Of a stretch of 64,000 nucleotides of DNA, positions 4,528 through 52,642 are shown in pieces (position 1 is the first letter of the stretch; each line of letters starts with the position of its first letter). The stretch lies in the NCBI GenBank assembly GCA_049521895.1, contig JBEKOJ010000001.1, forward strand, positions 631,114 through 695,113. The letters run 5' to 3'. The DNA comes from Candidatus Saccharimonadales bacterium. Lineage in GTDB: Bacteria > Patescibacteriota > Saccharimonadia > Saccharimonadales > UBA10212. The notes below the pieces were generated by a model. The model had not been told where the DNA came from and did not search any database. It saw only the letters and a program-made list of their open reading frames with translations. The translations under genes were made by a program, and so were the position numbers.

Positions 4528-4576
4528 TAAAAATTACACTATATGTAGCGGTATAATTAAAGTTCAGGAGGAAAGT

Positions 4577-5395
4577 ATGAAAATACCGAGTTTAGAGATG
4601 AATAATGGGCGGGAAATTCCGCAGATTGGCTTTGGGTTGTGGCGCAACACGGACGAAAAAGAATGCGTAGAATCAGTAAAGCTGGCGCTAAAAGCCGGCT
4701 ATCGCCACTTTGACGATGCCCAAGTTTATGAAAACGAGGAATATCTCGGCGAAGCACTAAAAGATAGCGACTTTAAGCGTGAGGAGCTATTTGTCACCAC
4801 CAAAATTGGCGTCAAAAACTTTGGCTATCATCGCGCATCAAAAAGTTTCAAAGTCTCGCTGGAAAAGCTACGGATGGAGTATGTAGACTTGCTGTTGCTG
4901 CACTTTCCGGTGCCGCTACTGCGTGGCAAATCTTGGAAAGCGCTGGAGGAAATCCACGCGGCGGGCCAGGCCAAAGCCATTGGCGTGAGTAATTACACTA
5001 TCCGCCACTTGGAAGAGTTGTTAAAGGACTGCAAAGTGCGGCCAGCCGTCAACCAGGTAGAGCTAAGCGTGGTTCTGCAACAGCCGGAACTAGTAGATTA
5101 CTGCAAAGAGCAAGGCATAATCGTAGAGGCTTACACACCTCTGGCAGAAGGCCACTTTTTCGATGACCCAACGCTCAAAGAAATCGCCAAAAAGCATGGC
5201 AAATCAGTGCCGCAAATAATGCTGCGCTGGTGCATAGATTACGGCGTGGTGGCGCTGACCAAATCCATCCACGAGGACCGCATCAAGAGTAATATCGACA
5301 TTTTCGACTTCAAATTAGATGACGCAGACATGAAAAAATTAAAAACACTGGACAAAAACTACCGCACCAACTGGGACCCCACCCACGTAGCATGA
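4577..5395 (+). CDS. aldo/keto reductase (2,5-diketo-D-gluconate reductase-like)
   Basis: ORF 4484..5395, with the start chosen at ATG 4577 after the AGGAGG RBS. AKR signatures present: GFGLW, AGYRHFDDAQVYENE, LLLHFP, IGVSNY. Confidence 0.85.
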   Translation: MKIPSLEMNNGREIPQIGFGLWRNTDEKECVESVKLALKAGYRHFDDAQVYENEEYLGEALKDSDFKREELFVTTKIGVKNFGYHRASKSFKVSLEKLRMEYVDLLLLHFPVPLLRGKSWKALEEIHAAGQAKAIGVSNYTIRHLEELLKDCKVRPAVNQVELSVVLQQPELVDYCKEQGIIVEAYTPLAEGHFFDDPTLKEIAKKHGKSVPQIMLRWCIDYGVVALTKSIHEDRIKSNIDIFDFKLDDADMKKLKTLDKNYRTNWDPTHVA

Positions 5396-7315: not shown

Positions 7316-8413
7316 TTAGGCTAGCTTAACAAGGCCAGCGTCGGCATCAACAGATACGATCTGGCCATTTTTGAGTACTTTGGTGGCATTGCCAGCGCCC
7401 ACAATGCAGGGCTTTTTAAGCTCGCGGGCTACAATCGCCGCATGCGACAAAATCCCGCCTTGGTCAGTTACGATCGCGGCAGCTTTTTGTATCAACGGTA
7501 CGTAATTTGGTGTCGTGACCTCACAAACTAGCACCGCGCCCTCCGGGAAATCTTCATCAACACCGTCCGCCTGGACAATTCTCACCGGGCCCTTGGCTTT
7601 ACCCGGGCTGCCAACCAGGCCATAAATAAGCGCGTTAGCATCTGTTTTTGGCTCCTCAATTATTATATTTGAATACATTTTTCCCAAGGCCGGGCTATAG
7701 TCTATAAACCATGTTCCAAGCGACGAATTGGTAGTTTCAAAATAACCCTCCAGATAATTATGTGTGAAGGTCGCCCTAAGCTTTTTGCTGAGCGTAGTTT
7801 GCTTGGTAGCGTCCGGAACATATAGGTAATCAGCCAAGGATTTTAGGTGTTCCAGAGCCTTTTTGTCGGCTGGCGCAACCATCCATTTTTTAAAATCGTA
7901 CCTAAAGACATGCGGCCGGTTTTTATCATGAAAGCCTTGAGTCAATTGATGATGTCCACCCCAGATTATCTCGCCTTGGATGCCATGTTTATTAACGATA
8001 AAAATGGTCGCCCAAGAATAGTCGGGTGGGTGGGGGATAAAATCCGCGCGGTATTTTGCCGGCTTAATGTCTTGCTCTAGGAACCACTTGTAGGCATTCT
8101 TTATAGATTTGCCGCGCATACGCAATTTCGGCAAATCATCTTCTTTGGGGATCAAACGCAGGGCACACAACTCATCACCATGTTTCCGCAAATATTTAAT
8201 GAAACCAGCTGTTTTATCAGCTAAATCCACTGCCTCAAACTGTGTCGGCTTATCAAATGGTAAGCCAATAACATCGTTGAGGATTTTTAATCGCTCACGC
8301 TTGTCGTTATCCTCGCGTCTGATCGCTTTGGCGTCTTTGTGTTTGATATCTTCCAACCACTCAGTCAGGGATTTCTGAGTTTTTAGCAGTTCGGCTAATT
8401 TCTCGTCCGCCAT
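7316..8413 (-). CDS. PEP-utilising enzyme, mobile (swivel His) domain protein with unknown N-terminal domain
   Basis: The C-terminus VTDQGGILSHAAIVARELKKPCIVG is the PEP-utilizers phosphohistidine motif. An AGGAGG RBS lies 9 nt upstream of the ATG. Confidence 0.8.
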   Translation of the reverse strand: MADEKLAELLKTQKSLTEWLEDIKHKDAKAIRREDNDKRERLKILNDVIGLPFDKPTQFEAVDLADKTAGFIKYLRKHGDELCALRLIPKEDDLPKLRMRGKSIKNAYKWFLEQDIKPAKYRADFIPHPPDYSWATIFIVNKHGIQGEIIWGGHHQLTQGFHDKNRPHVFRYDFKKWMVAPADKKALEHLKSLADYLYVPDATKQTTLSKKLRATFTHNYLEGYFETTNSSLGTWFIDYSPALGKMYSNIIIEEPKTDANALIYGLVGSPGKAKGPVRIVQADGVDEDFPEGAVLVCEVTTPNYVPLIQKAAAIVTDQGGILSHAAIVARELKKPCIVGAGNATKVLKNGQIVSVDADAGLVKLA

Positions 8414-11334: not shown

Positions 11335-11550
11335 CCTCTGCTTTAAATCACAGGCTTCAATAAGATTCTGGCGCTCCAGCTGGAGAGTGGCCGCTAGGGC
11401 AGAGCCGCGTACACTAACGATCAACGCTCCGCGCTCCAGCTTAACGGTGCACGGTCGCTTGTAACGCCGCATCACATAGTCTTTAACCACTGTTATTTCA
11501 TCCGGCCGCGCGAAGTTTTTCTTGCTCAAAATATCCTGCAGACTGTCCAT
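11311..11550 (-). CDS. DUF721/DciA-like small protein
   Basis: The ORF track extends to 11622 through a heptad repeat array. I prefer the start at MDSLQDIL. The pattern LERGALIVSVRGSALAATLQLERQNLIEA resembles DUF721. Confidence 0.5.
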   Translation of the reverse strand: MDSLQDILSKKNFARPDEITVVKDYVMRRYKRPCTVKLERGALIVSVRGSALAATLQLERQNLIEACDLKQRLVIRAGG

Positions 11551-11569
11551 TACACACTTCCTACGGGGG

Positions 11570-11657
11570 CAATGGACAAATGGACTAATGAACGAATGGA
11601 CAATACATTGAACATTGAACATTGAACATTGAACATTTTGGACTCCATGAGTCCAAG
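11570..11657. repeat. heptad-periodic AT-rich intergenic repeat block
   Basis: CAATGGACAAATGGACTAATGAACGAATGGACAATA followed by (CATTGAA)x4 at 11605-11632 and the hairpin GGACTCcatGAGTCC. Confidence 0.8.
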
Positions 11658-11669
11658 TATAATGGAGGT

Positions 11670-11692
11670 ATGCCGGAGTTACCAGAAGTAGA
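11670..11692 (+). pseudogene. relic duplicate of the fpg start (MPELPEV) with its own -10 box
   Basis: ATGCCGGAGTTACCAGAAGTAGA, against the real start ATGCCCGAACTCCCAGAGGTTGA at 11883. All differences are synonymous. TATAAT at 11658-11663 ends 6 nt upstream. Confidence 0.7.
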
Positions 11693-11849
11693 CCCGGCAG
11701 TAGACTTTCGAGTCAGCTCGTCGTCAGATGAGATATTTATTCGATGTCAGCGCTTAATTAATTGCCTAGGACTTACAGCCACCGATATTCGTGCTGACGA
11801 GCTGAAACTTACATGCAAAGTCGAATAATCTCGAAAGCTCACTGCCGGG
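11693..11849. mobile_element. 157-bp palindromic MITE-like element (family 1, long form) behind a relic fpg start
   Basis: Termini are CCCGGCAGTAGACTTTCGAGTCAGCTCG ... AGTCGAATAATCTCGAAAGCTCACTGCCGGG. They are identical to the termini of the 18186-18342 copy in the opposite orientation. Flanked by TAGA/TAGA. Confidence 0.8.
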
Positions 11850-11864
11850 TAGAGACAGATGGCT

Positions 11865-11873
11865 TGATACAAT
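11865..11873 (+). promoter_or_regulatory. extended -10 promoter of fpg
   Basis: TGATACAAT ends 9 nt before ATG 11883. Confidence 0.5.
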
Positions 11874-11882
11874 ATAGAAACT

Positions 11883-12818
11883 ATGCCCGAACTCCCAGAG
11901 GTTGAAACTGTCAAACAAGGTCTGAGCAAATTTTTGCCCAAGCTTGTAATTAAAGATGTCTGGCACGACTGGCCAAAGGGTTTCCCAAACGCGCCAGCAG
12001 ACGTAGCACGCTTTATGGTGGGTGCATCAATCACAGATGTTAAACGGCGGGCAAAAGTCTTAATTATTGGCCTCTCGAGCGGCTACAGCTTGGTTATCCA
12101 TCTTAAAATGACCGGCCAGCTGGTTTTTGTCGGCTCCGCCGACAAGCTAAAAGCTAACAGCTCAAAGCTTAAAGCTGAAGAAAAGTTTGGTGGTGGTCAC
12201 CCTACAAGTTCATTAGTCAATGATTTACCGGATAAAAGTACAAGGGTAGTTATTGATTTCACCAACGGAGCCAAACTTTTCTTCAACGACCAGCGTAAAT
12301 TTGGCTGGATGCGCCTGCTACCTTCAGTGGAAGTGCCGGAGATTGATTTTATGAAAACCGTCGGTCCCGAACCGCTGGACGATGATTTTACAGCTGGTAA
12401 ATTCATAGAGTGCATCCGTGGTCGCAAAAACAGCCCTATCAAGGCAGTTTTGCTGGACCAAAAAGTCCTGGCTGGAATCGGTAATATTTACGCCGATGAG
12501 TCGCTATTTGCTGCTAAAATCCATCCGTTGACCAAAGCAAGTGCCATCTCTCGCACCAAGCTTGTAGCGTTGCATAATGATTTGCGGTCCATACTACGGA
12601 CAGCCATAAAAAAAGGCGGCAGTACAGATAGGAATTACGTTAACGCCGAGGGCAAAAAGGGCAGTTACATCCAGTTTGCACAGGTGTTTAGGCGGGAAGA
12701 ACAGCCGTGCCCACGCTGCGGTACCACCATCCAAAAAATAAGAGTGGCGGGTAGAGGAACGCATATATGTCCCCGATGTCAGAAAATCAGGGACCAGAAG
12801 ATAAGGGACAAAAAATGA
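11883..12818 (+). CDS. mutM: formamidopyrimidine-DNA glycosylase
   Basis: N-terminal MPELPEVETV with catalytic Pro2. H2TH region LLDQKVLAGIGNIYADESLF. C-terminal zinc finger CPRCGTTI..CPRCQ. Confidence 0.93.
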   Translation: MPELPEVETVKQGLSKFLPKLVIKDVWHDWPKGFPNAPADVARFMVGASITDVKRRAKVLIIGLSSGYSLVIHLKMTGQLVFVGSADKLKANSSKLKAEEKFGGGHPTSSLVNDLPDKSTRVVIDFTNGAKLFFNDQRKFGWMRLLPSVEVPEIDFMKTVGPEPLDDDFTAGKFIECIRGRKNSPIKAVLLDQKVLAGIGNIYADESLFAAKIHPLTKASAISRTKLVALHNDLRSILRTAIKKGGSTDRNYVNAEGKKGSYIQFAQVFRREEQPCPRCGTTIQKIRVAGRGTHICPRCQKIRDQKIRDKK

Positions 12819-14073: not shown

Positions 14074-14448
14074 TTACTTATGGGTTTTGCCGGCAGATTT
14101 AGCGGGTTTCCCGGCAGTAGATCTTCGCGTGGCTTTGCCAGCATCCGCTTTGGCGGGTGGTCGCGAAGGCTCACTGCCGGGTTTGACACCCGCGGCTTTG
14201 GCTTCTCTGGCGATCCTTGATTTATAGCGTGCCGCTTTATTCTTATGGATCACAGCTTTTTTGGCGGCTATATCTATAGCTTTGACCGCTACTAGGGCGG
14301 TTTTGGCTATCTGGTCAGCCTTTTTGCCATCAACAGCTTTGGCAAAGGCCTTAAGCGCATTACGCAAGTCGCGTTTGGTGCGTGCATTGCGGGCACCAGC
14401 CTTGGCTGTCACCTTCACACGTTTTTTAGCAGATTTAATAATTGGCAC
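14074..14448 (-). CDS. rpsT: 30S ribosomal protein S20 carrying an in-frame 72-bp element insertion in its C-terminal tail
   Basis: MPIIKSAKKR..VIHKNKAARYKSR is canonical S20. The tail ..GVK-PGSEPSRPPAKADAGKATRRSTAG-KPAK.. is encoded by the palindromic element at 14110-14181. Confidence 0.93.
   Translation of the reverse strand: MPIIKSAKKRVKVTAKAGARNARTKRDLRNALKAFAKAVDGKKADQIAKTALVAVKAIDIAAKKAVIHKNKAARYKSRIAREAKAAGVKPGSEPSRPPAKADAGKATRRSTAGKPAKSAGKTHK
14110..14181. mobile_element. 72-bp palindromic MITE-like element (family 1, short form) in frame within rpsT
   Basis: CCCGGCAGTAGATCTTCGCG..CGCGAAGGCTCACTGCCGGG. 67/72 nt identical to the reverse complement of the 51908-51979 copy. Flanked by TTT/TTT. 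Confidence 0.85.
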
Positions 14449-14571: not shown

Positions 14572-14670
14572 AAAATGCTCAATGGACAAATGCTCTATGT
14601 TCAATGAATGGCCGATGAGGCGATGTAGCGATGCATTGCTTATTGTTCATTTGTCGCATTTGTCCATTGC
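14572..14670. repeat. heptad-periodic AT-rich intergenic hairpin
   Basis: Perfect 14-bp inverted repeat CAATGGACAAATGC (14580-14593) / GCATTTGTCCATTG (14656-14669). AATG/CATT recurs every 7 nt. CAATGGACAAATG also occurs at 11570. Confidence 0.8.
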
Positions 14671-14688
14671 CTCCGAAAGAGGTACCTA

Positions 14689-16269
14689 ATGGACGCTCCG
14701 GCCAAACAACAAGTAGTAGAGCGCGTTAAACAGGCCACCAATATTTTGGTGACTATTAGTACTGATCCGTCGGTGGACCAGCTAGCGGCTTGTATTGGTT
14801 TAACGCTATTGCTTAACCGCATGGAAAAACACGCCACAGCGGTGTTTTCTGGCCAAGTGCCATCCACGCTGGAGTTTTTGCAACCCGAAAAAACCATCGA
14901 GACCAATACCGACTCCTTGCGTGATTTTATAATTAGCCTGGACAAGAACAAGGCCGACAAGTTGCGCTATAAGGTCGAAGACCAAGTAGTGCGCATCTTT
15001 ATAACACCTTATAAAACGTCATTGAGTGAAAAAGACCTGGTTTTCAGCCAGGGTGACATTAACGTGGAAGTGGTCATGGCGCTGGGGATCAAAAACCGCA
15101 CGCATATAGATGCTGCCATTACCGCACACGGCCGTATTTTACACGACGCCACCGTAATTAACTTAATTGCTGGACCAGATAACCTGCCGCCGCTGGGCCA
15201 AATCAATTGGCAGGAGCCAGGCGCCAGCAGCTTATCGGAAATGCTGGTCAGTATCTCTGAAGCTTTTGGTCCTGGGTTGATAGATAACCAGATAGCTACG
15301 GCCTTTTTGACCGGTATCGTGGCTGAGACCCAGCGCTTTAGTAATACCAGGACTTCTCCCAAGACTATGACTATGGCCGCGCAACTAATGGCTGCCGGCG
15401 CTAACCAGCAGTTGATCGTCAGCAAACTGGAGCCGCCGCAAATGCCGCCGGCTGCCGGAAAACCGGCGCCAAAGCCCCAACCACCCAAACCGCCCATGCA
15501 ACCCAAAGACAAAGGCACCCTGAGCGTTTCGCATGATAAAGACAAAGGTGATAGCTCCGAAGTCGAAATCGCACCAGGCGAAATCCATATCGATGAAAAG
15601 GGCAACTTAACAACCACCAATCAGCTTGAGGACGAAGTTGAGCAACTACGAAAGCTGCGTCAACAGGAGGCATCGGTGCCTGAATCCGTTCCTTTGCCTT
15701 CACCACTGGCTCCGCTGGCAACTGCCGTACCCCCAGAAGCTCCCAAGCCACACGAGCTATTAGACCCCGTAGACCACAAACCGGCTTTTAACTCGCCATT
15801 TACTGCCGATACCCAAGCCGAGTGGATCGATCCTTATAACAGCGTGACAATTGACCCGCTGAGCGGCAATAGCGGCTCGGCGCCGGGCTCGCAAACAGAT
15901 GGTTTTATTGAACCCTCCAAAACAATACAACCCCCGGCTGAGCCGCCAAAAACACCGCTAACGGCGGCTGCTCTAGCAAACCCCGTGGCCGTTGGATCCG
16001 CGCCTGGTAACACTATGCCGGCGGTGGATAATGCCCGCAGCGCGGTAGAAAGCGCTATCGCCTCCAGCCCGTTTGACCCCGCTTTCGCGCCGCCTGTCAA
16101 TTCACTCAATGCTCAAACAATGGGCCCGGAATTGCATGGCTCCAGGAGCGCGAATATTACACCGAGTCTGCAGCTGCCTACTAATGGTGCTCCAGCGCCG
16201 GCTGCCGATATCGCCCCGCCAGCGCCGCCAACGGTACCGCCGCCGCTAGTACCAATAAACGGCCAATAA
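14689..16269 (+). CDS. DHH-family (NrnA-like) protein with degenerate catalytic motifs and a proline-rich C-terminal half
   Basis: The N-terminal 250 aa follow the NrnA layout, but the DHH/DxD positions are substituted (ILVTISTDPSVDQLAA). The C-terminal roughly 270 aa are low-complexity and P/A-rich. Confidence 0.5.
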   Translation: MDAPAKQQVVERVKQATNILVTISTDPSVDQLAACIGLTLLLNRMEKHATAVFSGQVPSTLEFLQPEKTIETNTDSLRDFIISLDKNKADKLRYKVEDQVVRIFITPYKTSLSEKDLVFSQGDINVEVVMALGIKNRTHIDAAITAHGRILHDATVINLIAGPDNLPPLGQINWQEPGASSLSEMLVSISEAFGPGLIDNQIATAFLTGIVAETQRFSNTRTSPKTMTMAAQLMAAGANQQLIVSKLEPPQMPPAAGKPAPKPQPPKPPMQPKDKGTLSVSHDKDKGDSSEVEIAPGEIHIDEKGNLTTTNQLEDEVEQLRKLRQQEASVPESVPLPSPLAPLATAVPPEAPKPHELLDPVDHKPAFNSPFTADTQAEWIDPYNSVTIDPLSGNSGSAPGSQTDGFIEPSKTIQPPAEPPKTPLTAAALANPVAVGSAPGNTMPAVDNARSAVESAIASSPFDPAFAPPVNSLNAQTMGPELHGSRSANITPSLQLPTNGAPAPAADIAPPAPPTVPPPLVPINGQ

Positions 16270-18144: not shown

Positions 18145-18153
18145 TGCTATAAT
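18145..18153 (+). promoter_or_regulatory. extended -10 promoter of rpsO
   Basis: TTGCTA-N17-TATAAT with a TGC extension. ATG 18165 is 11 nt downstream. Confidence 0.6.
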
Positions 18154-18164
18154 TGGCCGCAAGA

Positions 18165-18185
18165 ATGATCACCAGTGAGAAGAAG
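18165..18185 (+). pseudogene. ancestral rpsO start (MITSEKK), now separated from the gene body by the element
   Basis: ATG ATC ACC AGT GAG AAG AAG lies directly after the extended -10 TGCTATAAT (18145-18153). This frame runs into TGA at 18294-18296 inside the element. Confidence 0.7.
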
Positions 18186-18342
18186 CCCGGCAGTGAGCTT
18201 TCGAGATTATTCGACTCATCCATGAGGCTTAGCTCGCTGGTGCACCAATCAATAGCAGTAAATCATACGGTCAAGGATGATGTTTATGTCGAATGATGTA
18301 GTTACAGGAGAAGGCGAGCTGACTCGAAAGTCTACTGCCGGG
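18186..18342. mobile_element. 157-bp palindromic MITE-like element (family 1, long form) splitting rpsO
   Basis: CCCGGCAGTGAGCTTTCGAGATTATTCGACT ... CGAGCTGACTCGAAAGTCTACTGCCGGG. Flanked by AAG/AAG. Same length as the 11693 copy, but the 98-bp core is diverged. Confidence 0.85.
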
Positions 18343-18591
18343 AAGGCCAGGATTATATCCGATCTTCAGGCTCACAAAACCGATACCGGTTCGTCCGCAG
18401 TGCAGGTCGGTATTATGACCGAGCGGATTGCCGAGTTGACGGCGCATATGAAGACGCACAAACACGATTTCGCCGCCCGCCGGTCATTGCTGCAACTGGT
18501 CGGCAAACGCAAACGGCTGCTCAAATATATCGCCGCCCAGAGCGGGGATGAGTACCTGGCTTTGATTAAAAAGCTCGGTATTAGACGCTAG
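18277..18591 (+). CDS. rpsO: 30S ribosomal protein S15; its N-terminus is encoded inside an inserted element
   Basis: ..KARIISDLQAHKTDTGSSAVQVGIMTERIAELTAHMKTHKHDFAARRSLL..LGIRR is canonical S15. The probable start is ATG 18286, 8 nt after AAGGA. The ancestral start at 18165 is separated by the 157-bp element. Confidence 0.9.
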   Translation: MMFMSNDVVTGEGELTRKSTAGKARIISDLQAHKTDTGSSAVQVGIMTERIAELTAHMKTHKHDFAARRSLLQLVGKRKRLLKYIAAQSGDEYLALIKKLGIRR

Positions 18592-22050: not shown

Positions 22051-24141
22051 ATGAATCCAAAAAACAACAATCAATCAAGGCGTCCGCGCTCACAGCAGAC
22101 GAATAATTCCCGTAGGCGGAACCCCCAAAAAGATGGAGCAATCCGTAATGTCAGCAGGGGGGCGGCTATACGCGCCCAAAAAATGGCAGTCCAAGACGCC
22201 AACCGCGTAGCTAGCCAGTACTTGGACGCGGCTACTAAGCAAACTGACCAGCCCCGCCTGCCAGCCGGCAGGCCGGGGCGTGCCAATGTAGTGGATGACA
22301 GCCCGCGGCTTAGAATTACTGGCCTGGGTGGTATGGATGGCGGCGGCTCTAAAAACATGATAGTCATTGAATATAAAAACGATGCGATTGTCATCGACTG
22401 TGGCAATGATCTGGGCGTGGATTTGCCGGGCATTAATTATGGCATCGCCGACACTACTTATCTGGATCAAATCAAAAATAAAATTCGGGCTTTCGTAATT
22501 ACCCATGGCCACTTGGATCATATTGGCGGGCTACCACATATTTTGCCCAAGTACAACGTGCCAGTTTACGGTAGCCGCTTTACTATTGGCCGGGTGGAAG
22601 AAATTTTCGAAAATTTTGGGCTGCCAATGCCGGATGGCTTTGAGCTGAAAACAGTCATAATGAACGAAACTACGCACGAGCGTCTAAAAATCGGTGAATT
22701 TTTTGTGGAGTTAGTTAGGGTAACACACTCTATACCAGGTAGTACGGCAATAGTAATAGATACACCGCTGGGCAGAATCATAAATAGCGGCGATTTTCGC
22801 TTTGATTCCAATCCGTTAGACCACGAAAAGACTGACATGAACCGCTTTCAGGAACTAGCGCGCGATGGCGTATTAGTTCTGATGAGCGAATCCACTACTA
22901 CCGAGCGCCCGGGCCGGACGCCGTCTGAATCTACTATCGAGCAAAGTTTCATAGATATCATGAGCAATGCCGAGGGCCGTATCTTTGTCGGCCTGTTTTC
23001 CACCAACATGAACCGCGTGCAGATGATTATCAATGCTGCCGTTCACCATGGCAAAAAAGTAGCTATGGATGGCCGCAGCATGATCAGTACGTTGGAGATG
23101 GCGGTCAGGAACGGCTTCATGAAAATTCCCAAAGGTACATTTGTACCGATATCCAGTGTGGCTAATATGAAGGATGACCAAGTGGTGGTGGTCTGCACTG
23201 GTTCGCAGGGCGAGTCCAATTCGGCATTGGTGCGTATGGCCATGGGCGATCACAAGCACATCCAGCTGAAAGAGCAGGACACCGTGATTTTGTCCAGTAC
23301 GCCTATTCCATACAGTGGTAACGACGCTTTGATTCGTGCCATGACGGACGACATGTTACGCAAAGGCGTGCATGTTTACCGTCACGAAACGCATGACGTA
23401 GATAATGTCGGCCCGCTGCATGTCTCTGGCCACGGTAGCCAGGAAGAATACCGCGAGATGATCGAAATGCTAAAACCCAAGTTTTTCATTCCGGTTTATG
23501 GCGACTATACTGCTAAAAAATACCATATTGATTTGGCTATCCAGGCGGGTGTTCCGCGGGCTAACACGATCAATGCCGAGAACGGCGAAGTCATTAGCGT
23601 CAGCGGCTCTAAGATGGAAAAGGATGGCGAAGTACCGCACGGCACGATTCTAGTGGACCAAACCGGCGCCATCGTCAGCACCGTAGTGGTTAAAGACCGC
23701 GTACTGCTGGCCGAAGAGGGCTTGGTGGCAGTCGTTCTGACTGTCGATAAAAAAACCGGCTCGCTGCTCACCAGCCCGGACATCATCAGCCGCGGCTTCA
23801 TCTACATGAAAGATAACGAGGAGTTGATGAATGCCTTTAGGACAGAACTACGCCGTGCGGTGGTGCAGCGCTTCAAGCGGGTAGATTTGGACCGATTTAA
23901 AGCCGAGCTGCGTGATTACGTCACGCACTTTTTGTACGAGCAGACGCAGCGCAGCCCGATTGTCATTCCGGTGGTCAATGTCATTGGCGGCCGGGTAGAG
24001 AAGGGCAATAACGACCTGCATAAAACTGGTGCTAACGGCCAACCGGTGGCTAAAACACCAGAGGAAATTGCTCTTGAGCAGCAGCGACGCTTCGCGCAGA
24101 TGAGGCAACGTCTGCTGAACCAAGACGCCCGCGTCGACTAG
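22051..24141 (+). CDS. rnj: ribonuclease J with basic N-terminal extension
   Basis: Metallo-beta-lactamase motif ITHGHLDHIGG plus beta-CASP and C-terminal domain. About 80 aa of R/Q/N-rich N-terminal extension. Confidence 0.9.
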   Translation: MNPKNNNQSRRPRSQQTNNSRRRNPQKDGAIRNVSRGAAIRAQKMAVQDANRVASQYLDAATKQTDQPRLPAGRPGRANVVDDSPRLRITGLGGMDGGGSKNMIVIEYKNDAIVIDCGNDLGVDLPGINYGIADTTYLDQIKNKIRAFVITHGHLDHIGGLPHILPKYNVPVYGSRFTIGRVEEIFENFGLPMPDGFELKTVIMNETTHERLKIGEFFVELVRVTHSIPGSTAIVIDTPLGRIINSGDFRFDSNPLDHEKTDMNRFQELARDGVLVLMSESTTTERPGRTPSESTIEQSFIDIMSNAEGRIFVGLFSTNMNRVQMIINAAVHHGKKVAMDGRSMISTLEMAVRNGFMKIPKGTFVPISSVANMKDDQVVVVCTGSQGESNSALVRMAMGDHKHIQLKEQDTVILSSTPIPYSGNDALIRAMTDDMLRKGVHVYRHETHDVDNVGPLHVSGHGSQEEYREMIEMLKPKFFIPVYGDYTAKKYHIDLAIQAGVPRANTINAENGEVISVSGSKMEKDGEVPHGTILVDQTGAIVSTVVVKDRVLLAEEGLVAVVLTVDKKTGSLLTSPDIISRGFIYMKDNEELMNAFRTELRRAVVQRFKRVDLDRFKAELRDYVTHFLYEQTQRSPIVIPVVNVIGGRVEKGNNDLHKTGANGQPVAKTPEEIALEQQRRFAQMRQRLLNQDARVD

Positions 24142-24144
24142 GTT

Positions 24145-24223
24145 GAGGTCCGTCCTTGGAAAAGGATAGATAAAACTTTGTGGTTTTAATTTCTTAACTG
24201 TACCTTTTCCAAGGACGGACCTC
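24145..24223. repeat. perfect 21-bp inverted repeat with 37-nt spacer, downstream of rnj
   Basis: GAGGTCCGTCCTTGGAAAAGG (24145-24165) and CCTTTTCCAAGGACGGACCTC (24203-24223). Confidence 0.85.
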
Positions 24224-51863: not shown

Positions 51864-52642
51864 AAAACACCCACTCTCCACTCTCCACTCTTCACCTAAG
51901 AGGCTTCCCCGGCAGTGAGCCTTCGCGACCATCCACCTTAGTGGATGCTGGCAAAGCCACGCGAAGATCTACTGCCGGGTTCACCATAGTTGAGCTGCTG
52001 CTGGCTACCTCTGTTTTCTCGATAATTTTGCTGGCAGCTTTAGCCAGCTTTTTGCAGGTGGGCCGGCTATTTTATAAAGGCGTATCATTGACCAACACTC
52101 AGAATACCGCTACCCAAGTACTTAATGATGTCGCTCACAGTCTACAGACTTCCAGCACACTTTCTCTGCCAACCACTGCCAATGGCTACACCTATACATG
52201 CATTGGAAACGCCCGTTATACCTACACTACCACTAATATCAGTGGCCAGCAGGTAGCGGTGGCGGCTAACCTGTCGGATTCACCCAACTATGGTAGTGGA
52301 GCCAACGGCGGCAACTTTGGCCTGCTTAAAGATACCTTACCAGGCAGCTCCGGCTGCGCGGTCCCATGCTGGCCCGCCAGCAGCTGTAGCAACGGCCAAG
52401 TAGTGTTTAGTAATCCGGTAGAGATGCTGGGCGACCAAATGCGCGTGGCGACTTTTAGCATAAGTAGTGTATCTGGCGTCCAAAACCTCTATAATATCAA
52501 AATGGTAGTGGCTTATGGGGATAGTTCGGTTATGAGCTTTAGTAATCCCGGGCAACCTGTGTGCATAGGCAATTCGCAAAACCAGGCATTTTGCTCGGTT
52601 GTCAACCTCTCTACTACTGTTTTTCAGGGGGTGCGTTCATGA
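51860..52642 (+). CDS. minor pilin / pseudopilin with repeat-expanded leader peptide
   Basis: The ATG at 51860 forms an ATGA overlap. Leader MKNTHSPLSTLHLRGF-[PGSEPSRPSTLVDAGKATRRSTAG]-FTIVELLLATSVF. The bracketed residues are encoded by the 72-bp element. Confidence 0.8.
   Translation: MKNTHSPLSTLHLRGFPGSEPSRPSTLVDAGKATRRSTAGFTIVELLLATSVFSIILLAALASFLQVGRLFYKGVSLTNTQNTATQVLNDVAHSLQTSSTLSLPTTANGYTYTCIGNARYTYTTTNISGQQVAVAANLSDSPNYGSGANGGNFGLLKDTLPGSSGCAVPCWPASSCSNGQVVFSNPVEMLGDQMRVATFSISSVSGVQNLYNIKMVVAYGDSSVMSFSNPGQPVCIGNSQNQAFCSVVNLSTTVFQGVRS
51908..51979. mobile_element. 72-bp palindromic MITE-like element (family 1, short form) in frame in a pseudopilin leader
   Basis: CCCGGCAGTGAGCCTTCGCGACCATCCACCTTAGTGGATGCTGGCAAAGCCACGCGAAGATCTACTGCCGGG. 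Flanked by TTC/TTC. Confidence 0.85.

Follow-up and report, generated by a model that had tools for sequence, protein, structure and literature searches.

The stretch of DNA analysed here (the window, 64,000 nt of contig JBEKOJ010000001.1 from a Candidatus Saccharimonadales bacterium, to which coordinates refer unless a related locus is named) contains two starts of fpg (mutM), an upstream one that breaks off at a palindromic element and a downstream one that opens the working gene (Table 1). Relic start, element, spacer and new start together form a unit of about 245 bp that we call the cassette, and the related loci with which it was compared carry L-numbers. The catalytic nucleophile of Fpg is the proline that follows the initiator methionine. 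The working protein has this proline directly after Met (MPELPEVET), and contains the Fapy glycosylase and H2TH domains as well as a zinc finger at the C-terminus that reads CPRC...CPRC, and the matches to its homologues place the organism in Saccharibacteria. One close Fpg homologue, P0003 (a relative of P0002), starts MQELPEV with glutamine in place of the catalytic proline, either an inactive allele or a sequencing error.

A first-pass annotation made from the letters alone had described a TATAAT box, the upstream start, the element between its TAGA flanks, a 33-nt spacer and a working ATG at 11883, and all of these are present in the sequence. Removing the element and one TAGA gives an MPELPEVET reading, and the two 26-nt copies of the start differ at 7 positions (8 of 27 when one more nucleotide is counted), all synonymous, again as described. 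The arrangement is not an assembly artefact, since the locus is identical over 6.7 kb in four independent JGI/ENA contigs and the same architecture occurs in other species.

Table 1. Features of the fpg locus and further copies of the element in the window.
Feature	Position	Strand	Remarks
P1, ancestral -10 TATAAT	11658..11663	+	6 nt before relic ATG; leaderless-type layout; conserved in L066 and L159
Relic fpg start ATGCCGGAGTTACCAGAAGTAGA	11670..11692	+	codons 1-7 and 2 nt (MPELPEV); read from sequence
MITE-like palindromic element, long form	11693..11849	+	157 bp; TAGA on both sides; ends CCCGGCAGTAGACTTTCGAG and CTCGAAAGCTCACTGCCGGG
Terminator-like hairpin and U-rich tail within the element	11717..11732	+ (fpg sense)	kept in L066 and L159
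Right TAGA (11850-11853) and decayed relic codons 8-12 (G ACA GAT GGC TTG)	11850..11866	+	comparison with L159 and L164
P2, extended -10 TGATACAAT	11865..11873	+	9 nt before working ATG; at relic/patch junction
Imported patch: 16 nt and codons 1-10 (ATG CCC GAA CTC CCA GAG GTT GAA ACT GTC)	11867..11912	+	ancestry comparison
Working fpg (mutM), 311 aa	11883..12818	+	PF01149, PF06831, PF06827; 8000 homologues
Short 72-nt copy, in-frame in the C-terminal tail of rpsT	14110..14181	+	family ends
Second long copy, 157 nt, in rpsO after codon 7	18186..18342	-	family ends; 3-bp AAG duplication
Short 72-nt copy, in-frame in the prepilin leader peptide	51908..51979	-	family ends

The relic start and the element that interrupts it

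In the window's six-frame translation PELPEV stands at the relic and at the working start and nowhere else. MPELPEV would arise at random in the 300 nt ahead of fpg with a probability of about 6.6e-8, so that a chance origin of the upstream copy, a doubt that the first-pass annotation had itself raised, is excluded. The window relic is identical to the start of L164 over 11670-11692 and differs at 1/23 positions from the relics of L066 and L159. Its layout, TATAAT-N6-ATG, is the layout before every uninterrupted fpg examined, with TATAAT 6 or 7 nt ahead of the ATG in L005, L009, L160, L161 and L162. Comparison with L159 and L164 revealed that the relic is longer than first noted, reaching to about codon 11-12 (GTA GAG ACA GAT GGC TTG) and ending at 11866. 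Past the element the window copy has decayed to GAG ACA GAT GGC TTG, L159 keeps GAG ACA GTG CGC TTG (ETVRL) at relic codons 8-12, and the three carrier lineages show non-synonymous differences there. Without the element and one TAGA, the L159 relic reads (G)TG CCG GAG TTA CCA GAA GTA GAG ACA GTG CGC TTG, which matches the L164 start at 33/33 nt, the start codon excepted. Judged by this match and by the layout common to cassette-free relatives, the relic is the resident, ancestral fpg start, 11-12 codons long, in agreement with the first-pass proposal of a disrupted upstream start.

The element has terminal inverted repeats with 20-21 nt arms that are 86% complementary and extended to a 30-bp stem, and copies of the family share the end motif CCCGGCAGTAGA. 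Within the window the 20-nt inverted ends turn up six times where none would be expected, resolving into four copies. Alignment of eight long copies gives a shared terminal stem of 30 bp in which 95.7% of cells are paired and five pairs have changed on both sides, with a covariation score exceeding all 500 shuffles. L164 and L162 preserve the empty site, GAAG-TAGA-GACAGTGCGC, i.e. ATGCCGGAGTTACCAGAAG-TAGA-GACAGTGCG (uninterrupted GAAGTAGAGACA), so the alignment proves an insertion with a 4-bp TAGA duplication, the left copy of which (11689-11692) forms the last 4 nt of the relic segment. With inverted ends, a target duplication matched by an empty site, small size without a transposase and multiple copies, the element is by its structure a palindromic transposon resembling a miniature inverted-repeat transposable element (MITE). 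Rfam searches with the window (gathering score) and with the locus (E up to 10) gave no match to it and returned just two tRNAs. A scan of viral contigs for the end motif found none, and a scan of genome contigs for the element end gave 34 matches, nearly all due to chance, the real ones being L027 and L037.

Several other accounts of the element were tried and rejected. A self-splicing intron or other structured RNA at fpg has no Rfam match, and removal of the element only would give EVDRD... and not EVET. Translational bypass of the T4 gene 60 type could draw on the GTA flanks, yet the resumed frame, VETDGLIQYRNYARTPRG, stops after 18 codons. The variable core of the long copies has no adenine-specific pattern as in a diversity-generating retroelement and no stem II as in a hammerhead.

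Two short tandem arrays lie just upstream of P1 at 11571-11640, AATGGACn repeated about 4 times and then CATTGAA 4-5 times, and may form a binding array for a regulator; the first of them has an inverted match of 38 nt at 14657-14694, ahead of another gene start. The spacer upstream of fpg, which follows a gene of 79 aa, holds a lineage-specific open reading frame (ORF) of 131-138, 205, 292 or 420 aa in almost every relative, and holds none in the window (spacers compared: window 11550-11670, L005 2340-2957, L009 1230-2657, L066 2791-3186, L164 1-1157). By this comparison the spacer 5' of fpg is an insertion hot spot, and incoming fpg DNA would have homology on one side only.

Ancestry of the working start

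The working copy encodes the same peptide as the relic with nearly every codon different, the longest identical run being 5 nt. In all carriers its start reads CCC GAA CTx CCx GAG GTT, and all cassette-free relatives have CCG (or CCT) GAG at codons 2-3 and no CCC GAA CTx. Within codons 2-20, codons for the same amino acid differ from L164 at 14/16 positions in L159 and 13/16 in L066, against 31% and 24%, respectively, over its remaining length (Fisher p 1e-5 and 5e-6), and cassette-free control pairs gave no such synonymous excess in codons 2-20. The breakpoint in synonymous differences falls at codon 20/21, beside a highly conserved stretch, and the patch has AKLLPG in place of the AKFLPK of sister lineages. 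In the window the patch is about 94% identical to L066, with about 70% further into the gene, and the window's own sequence (KQGLSK...) follows it. By the codon differences and the breakpoint, the first ~20 codons and the 16 nt upstream of them have another ancestry than the remainder of fpg, which agrees with the first-pass description of a replacement 5' end. The same peptide despite near-total codon difference is the mark of genes that diverged while both were functional and were joined afterwards.

The same codons bear on whether the second start could have arisen in place, by a tandem duplication of promoter and 12 codons (~52 nt) that drifted before the element hit the redundant copy. 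Both units do consist of a -10, a short spacer and ATG with 12 codons, and TACAAT is similar to TATAAT. A redundant copy that drifted to synonymous saturation would lose its reading, however, and here the peptide is unchanged (11/12 identical in L159) though nearly every codon differs; working codons 2-20 also differ in ancestry from codon 21 onward, and AKLLPG departs from the AKFLPK of sister lineages, so that we regard a local duplication as highly improbable. The two copies differ at 9-10/10 consecutive codons, slightly above the saturation prediction. Selection for maximal recoding between the copies was considered and set aside, as its support is marginal (rough p 0.02-0.05) and a distant donor explains the excess better.

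The new start brings a putative promoter with it. The 33-nt spacer (11850-11882) contains TGATACAAT, so that 15 nt separate the conserved fpg -10 from the element, and a 12-nt block around it, GCTTGATACAAT, is invariant in the window, L066, L130, L158 and L159, while 8/21 spacer positions outside the block differ between the window and L066. The extended -10 that the first-pass annotation had ascribed to the replacement start is thus part of a block kept in three lineages. We found no Shine-Dalgarno sequence before the working ATG, though such sequences precede other window genes and the mscL gene of L077, and a crude scan placed -10-like boxes directly 5' of about 15/62 candidate starts in the window. 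These features are consistent with a nearly leaderless fpg transcript from P2. The left junction reads ...GTG CGC TTG|ATACAAT, where TTG may be resident codon 14 after a 6-nt deletion or may be donor sequence.

Distribution and probable spread of the cassette among lineages

The whole cassette is also present in L066/L130 (whose Fpg is 74-78% identical to that of the window), L158 and L159, and absent from L005-L008, L009/L010, L160, L161, L162/L163 and L164. In Fpg and HolA trees the cassette-free L164, L162, L009 and L005 fall between carriers; for HolA, L164 stands at 0.88 to L066/L159 and L066 at 0.89 to L159, and the window groups with the non-carrier L005. L164 retains resident-type codons 12-20, from which it follows that it never carried the patch and lost no cassette. 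The first-pass suggestion that the two copies came from different alleles or strains therefore holds in that their ancestry differs, but not as a recent event at the level of strains or alleles, because the cassette is shared with L066/L130, L158 and L159; nor is it a strain-level accident in this genome, being an old shared allele that is missing from the equally close or closer L164, L162, L009 and L005. Carriers L066 (4445-4816), L158 (1001-1372) and L159 (1357-1728) also have a 123-aa 23S_rRNA_IVP gene (PF05635) between fpg and holA, which is absent there in the window, L005, L160, L162 and L164.

The cassettes of the window and L066 share about 89% identity, whereas four-fold sites of fpg and holA are 38-44% identical, near saturation, and the 45 nt ahead of P1 differ by about 50%. 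Differences amount to 1/23 in the relic, 14-15/157 in the element, 8/33 in the spacer and 2-3/31 in working codons 1-10, with identity falling to about 70% past codon 10. High identity where neutral sites are saturated, together with absence from closer relatives, indicates that the cassette probably spreads by homologous recombination. The simplest reading of these comparisons is that it arose in the L164/L066/L159 group and reached the window lineage by homologous recombination through the conserved fpg start. The window's relic was itself probably imported along with the cassette, as its codons 10-12 look like the other clade's VRL and not like the window's own VKQ. Saccharibacteria are naturally competent (PMC10633639), and homology-facilitated illegitimate recombination (HFIR) has been documented in competent bacteria (PMC3240628).

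A single origin in a common ancestor, followed by several losses and with conservation due to purifying selection, would account for the identical architecture and junctions in all carriers and for the constrained appearance of P1, the relic, the element ends and P2. Such descent would require at least 3-4 independent losses, and the resident-type codons 12-20 of L164 could not be regenerated by deletion between repeats. Four-fold sites separate the window from L066 far more strongly than do the presumably neutral sites of the spacer and the element core, and the VRL-type relic codons of the window do not fit either. We consider purely vertical inheritance unlikely.

On balance we think it probable that a transposon split the fpg start, that a foreign, promoter-bearing piece of fpg repaired the gene, and that the resulting arrangement moves between lineages. 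The MITE-like element entered fpg at codon 7/8, duplicating TAGA and cutting off P1 and MPELPEV. Because the catalytic proline must follow the initiator methionine, no start codon inside the element could rescue fpg and a new start was needed; the first-pass argument from Pro2 thus explains the new fpg start, and the same family sits in rpsO with no replacement start. About 16 nt with a -10 and the first 10-20 codons, of different ancestry by the codon comparison, would have been joined downstream of the relic, probably by HFIR anchored on conserved codons 21-27 on the right with an illegitimate left join after relic codon 11-12. Either order of insertion and patching would serve: the patch may have rescued a broken gene, or the element may have landed later in a redundant relic. 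The junction would form the extended -10, probably driving a nearly leaderless fpg mRNA, and the cassette, patchily distributed as it is, would behave as an allele moving via its conserved flanks by transformation.

Several observations weigh against this account. P1 and the relic are conserved beyond what a dead relic would lead one to expect, with 0-1 differences per 23 nt against 8/33 in the spacer, which hints at remaining function or very recent spread. L066 and L159 differ by 24% in the element core and by 3% in the flanks, yet the window and L066 by only 13% in the core, a pattern that, taken at face value, neither a simple vertical nor a single-transfer history explains. A consensus promoter scan missed P2, which has no -35, and did not call P1 either; it is sequence conservation that points to use of these promoters. 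We found no partner the size of an insertion sequence (IS) with matching ends, and no autonomous transposase, in the window or in 160 loci, and collection scans for an autonomous IS gave small elements alone, among the matches listed. The donor lineage of the patch was not found among the relatives compared, and the position of the left join is ambiguous between relic codons 11 and 14, perhaps with a deletion of 6 nt.

Some of these observations would fit a working 5' leader or small RNA, made up of P1, the relic ORF and the structured element, that controls fpg by ending transcription at an internal hairpin, by RNase III cutting within the 30-bp stem or by coupling to the upstream ORF. Carriers hardly vary in P1 and the first 23 nt of the relic, and the predicted terminator-like hairpin in the fpg sense, which could stop P1 transcripts, is kept in L066 and L159 with a G.U pair changed to G-C. 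Wobble pairs in the stems lie mostly on the sense strand of the host gene (8 vs 2), suggestive of selection on a transcribed hairpin though not significant, and we set this bias aside as proof of function at the RNA level. Correia elements are known to be bound or cut by RNase III and can create promoters (PMC2649163, PMC10969869). Against such a leader, the relic ORF, which in the window stops inside the element at 11826-11828 and encodes PELPEVDPAVDFR, is conserved in neither length (52 aa in the window, 24 aa in L066) nor sequence; its start codon is GTG in other carriers, poor for leaderless initiation; internal initiation would have no Shine-Dalgarno sequence before the working ATG to use; P2 is conserved; and relatives do without the whole arrangement. 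We judge it quite unlikely that the leader controls fpg in this way. The core divergence, hairpin, wobble bias and conserved P1 and relic still make a role as leader or small RNA, or gene conversion among copies, conceivable, and the conserved RNA of P1, relic and element may have a function of its own.

The cassette is always complete and its distribution patchy, as would also be expected if element and recoded start were one mobile unit that targets the fpg start and brings its own repair, invading without killing the gene, and the slight excess of codon differences over saturation would suit such a unit. Family members in rpsO, rpsT, prepilin, gyrA and intergenic sites nonetheless have no duplicated host sequence beside them; at fpg the element has its own TAGA duplication with a matching empty site; no recombinase or nuclease is encoded; and the patch resembles an ordinary Saccharibacteria fpg 5' end (AKLLPG). 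A dedicated module of insertion and rescue is on these grounds very unlikely. Rather improbable, too, is the idea that the cassette has become a self-propagating unit, a selfish element held between a retained native start and a recoded, promoter-bearing rescue start. By analogy with a rescue-carrying drive allele, and with equally little credence from us, the conserved fpg flanks would allow such a unit to invade naive genomes by transformation without loss of the gene. Splitting, foreign repair and subsequent movement as an allele remain the account that we prefer.

The element family and comparable systems

The long copies at fpg and rpsO have identical 28- and 30-nt ends and cores that share about 40% and a few islands. 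Related elements were detected in contigs of other Saccharibacteria and Patescibacteria, always with direct duplications of 3-5 bp, and the target duplications of the family include TAGA, AAG, TTT, GAA, TCAA, TATAA and TCTG. The short form folds into a Y shape with compensatory changes and is read in one frame (P[GS]SEPSRP...ATRRSTAG) in rpsT, in prepilin and in the C-terminal domain of gyrA (L027 1513-1584). The prepilin copy sits exactly at the G|F leader cleavage site, which it recreates. L077 has long elements at 4566-4720 and 7948-8102, and the long copy of this pair within the TATAAT upstream of mscL duplicated TATAA and thereby recreated the -10. The second of the two is degenerate and carries a T6/A152 end variant that is also present in L159; this shared variant is a hint that copies in one genome evolve in concert. 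At 24145-24223, after an ORF ending at 24141, lies a perfect inverted repeat of 21 nt (spacer 37 nt), which may be a terminator or another small palindromic element.

In rpsO (18153-18591) the 157-nt element contains stop codons and splits the gene after codon 7 (MITSEKK), and the same insertion was detected in two other species (L047 3460-3970, and L065). The element at this site offers in-frame start codons of its own. Element-free S15 proteins read EKKA, so AAG is a 3-bp target duplication; an intron or exact excision, which would restore the frame, was rejected on the same evidence. The seven-codon rpsO relic varies among species by synonymous or Ser/Gly changes alone, while the in-frame S15 N-terminus encoded by the element (..GEGELTRKSTAGK) shows exclusively non-synonymous ones. 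S15 may be made from an internal ATG at 18277, by termination-reinitiation or by skipping the element; because the relic still looks protein-constrained, skipping at the RNA or ribosome level is a possibility, though a rather improbable one.

Among known systems, the Correia elements of Neisseria (CREE/NEMIS) are similar in their size of ~70-160 bp, long and short forms, inverted ends, short duplications and many copies, in being co-transcribed with host genes as long hairpins, and in promoter insertions such as that of the L077 copy. They are unrelated in sequence, and whereas their duplication is TA and a promoter can come from the element end, the duplications here are a variable 3-5 bp, the fpg promoter lies outside the element in the patch, and no cognate IS was found; the RNase III parallel consists here of the predicted 30-bp stem and the weak sense-strand wobble bias. 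Rickettsia palindromic elements (RPEs) reside in essential coding genes and are read through in frame (PMC10969869, PMC1779305), as the 72-nt relatives (PGSEPSRP...RRSTAG) are in rpsT, prepilin and gyrA. The 157-nt copies differ from RPEs in not being multiples of three and in containing stops, so that the fpg copy splits its gene and is not read in frame, and the phylum is different with no sequence similarity. HFIR involves one homologous and one illegitimate side and leaves resident sequence beside the incoming copy (PMC3240628), and fpg offers the foreign segment and the homologous junction (breakpoint at codon 20/21, p about 1e-5). At fpg such an event would be read from its product, a natural one that gives the gene a start again and that has since passed from lineage to lineage.

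The target of e14 and phage 21 at Escherichia coli icd stays functional after integration, the incoming DNA supplying a diverged gene end and the original end persisting as a relic. At fpg, ~210 bp lie between the copies, with no recombinase ORF and no identical core sites; the 5' and not the 3' end is replaced, and the intervening element is flanked by a separate target duplication of its own. A limited literature search on MITEs in Saccharibacteria (a single term pair) found no description. The fpg cassette is an old, shared, horizontally moving allele that combines known processes, and no new kind of system.

Gene callers misplace starts at such sites: Fpg is called as 284 aa from V/M-ETVR (P0058 and P0060; L005 and L007), and S15 as 104 aa from inside the element (P0121). 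Public annotations of leaderless fpg and split rpsO are thus systematically wrong where these arrangements occur. The fpg locus provides a clean natural case of a gene start broken by a selfish element and repaired by foreign DNA with its own promoter, the resulting allele then moving between species. It also introduces a MITE family of Saccharibacteria and Patescibacteria that resides inside essential genes (rpsO, rpsT, gyrA and a pilin gene), a habit shared with the RPEs of Rickettsia. Such an allele could owe its spread to the natural competence and frequent recombination of these ultrasmall bacteria.

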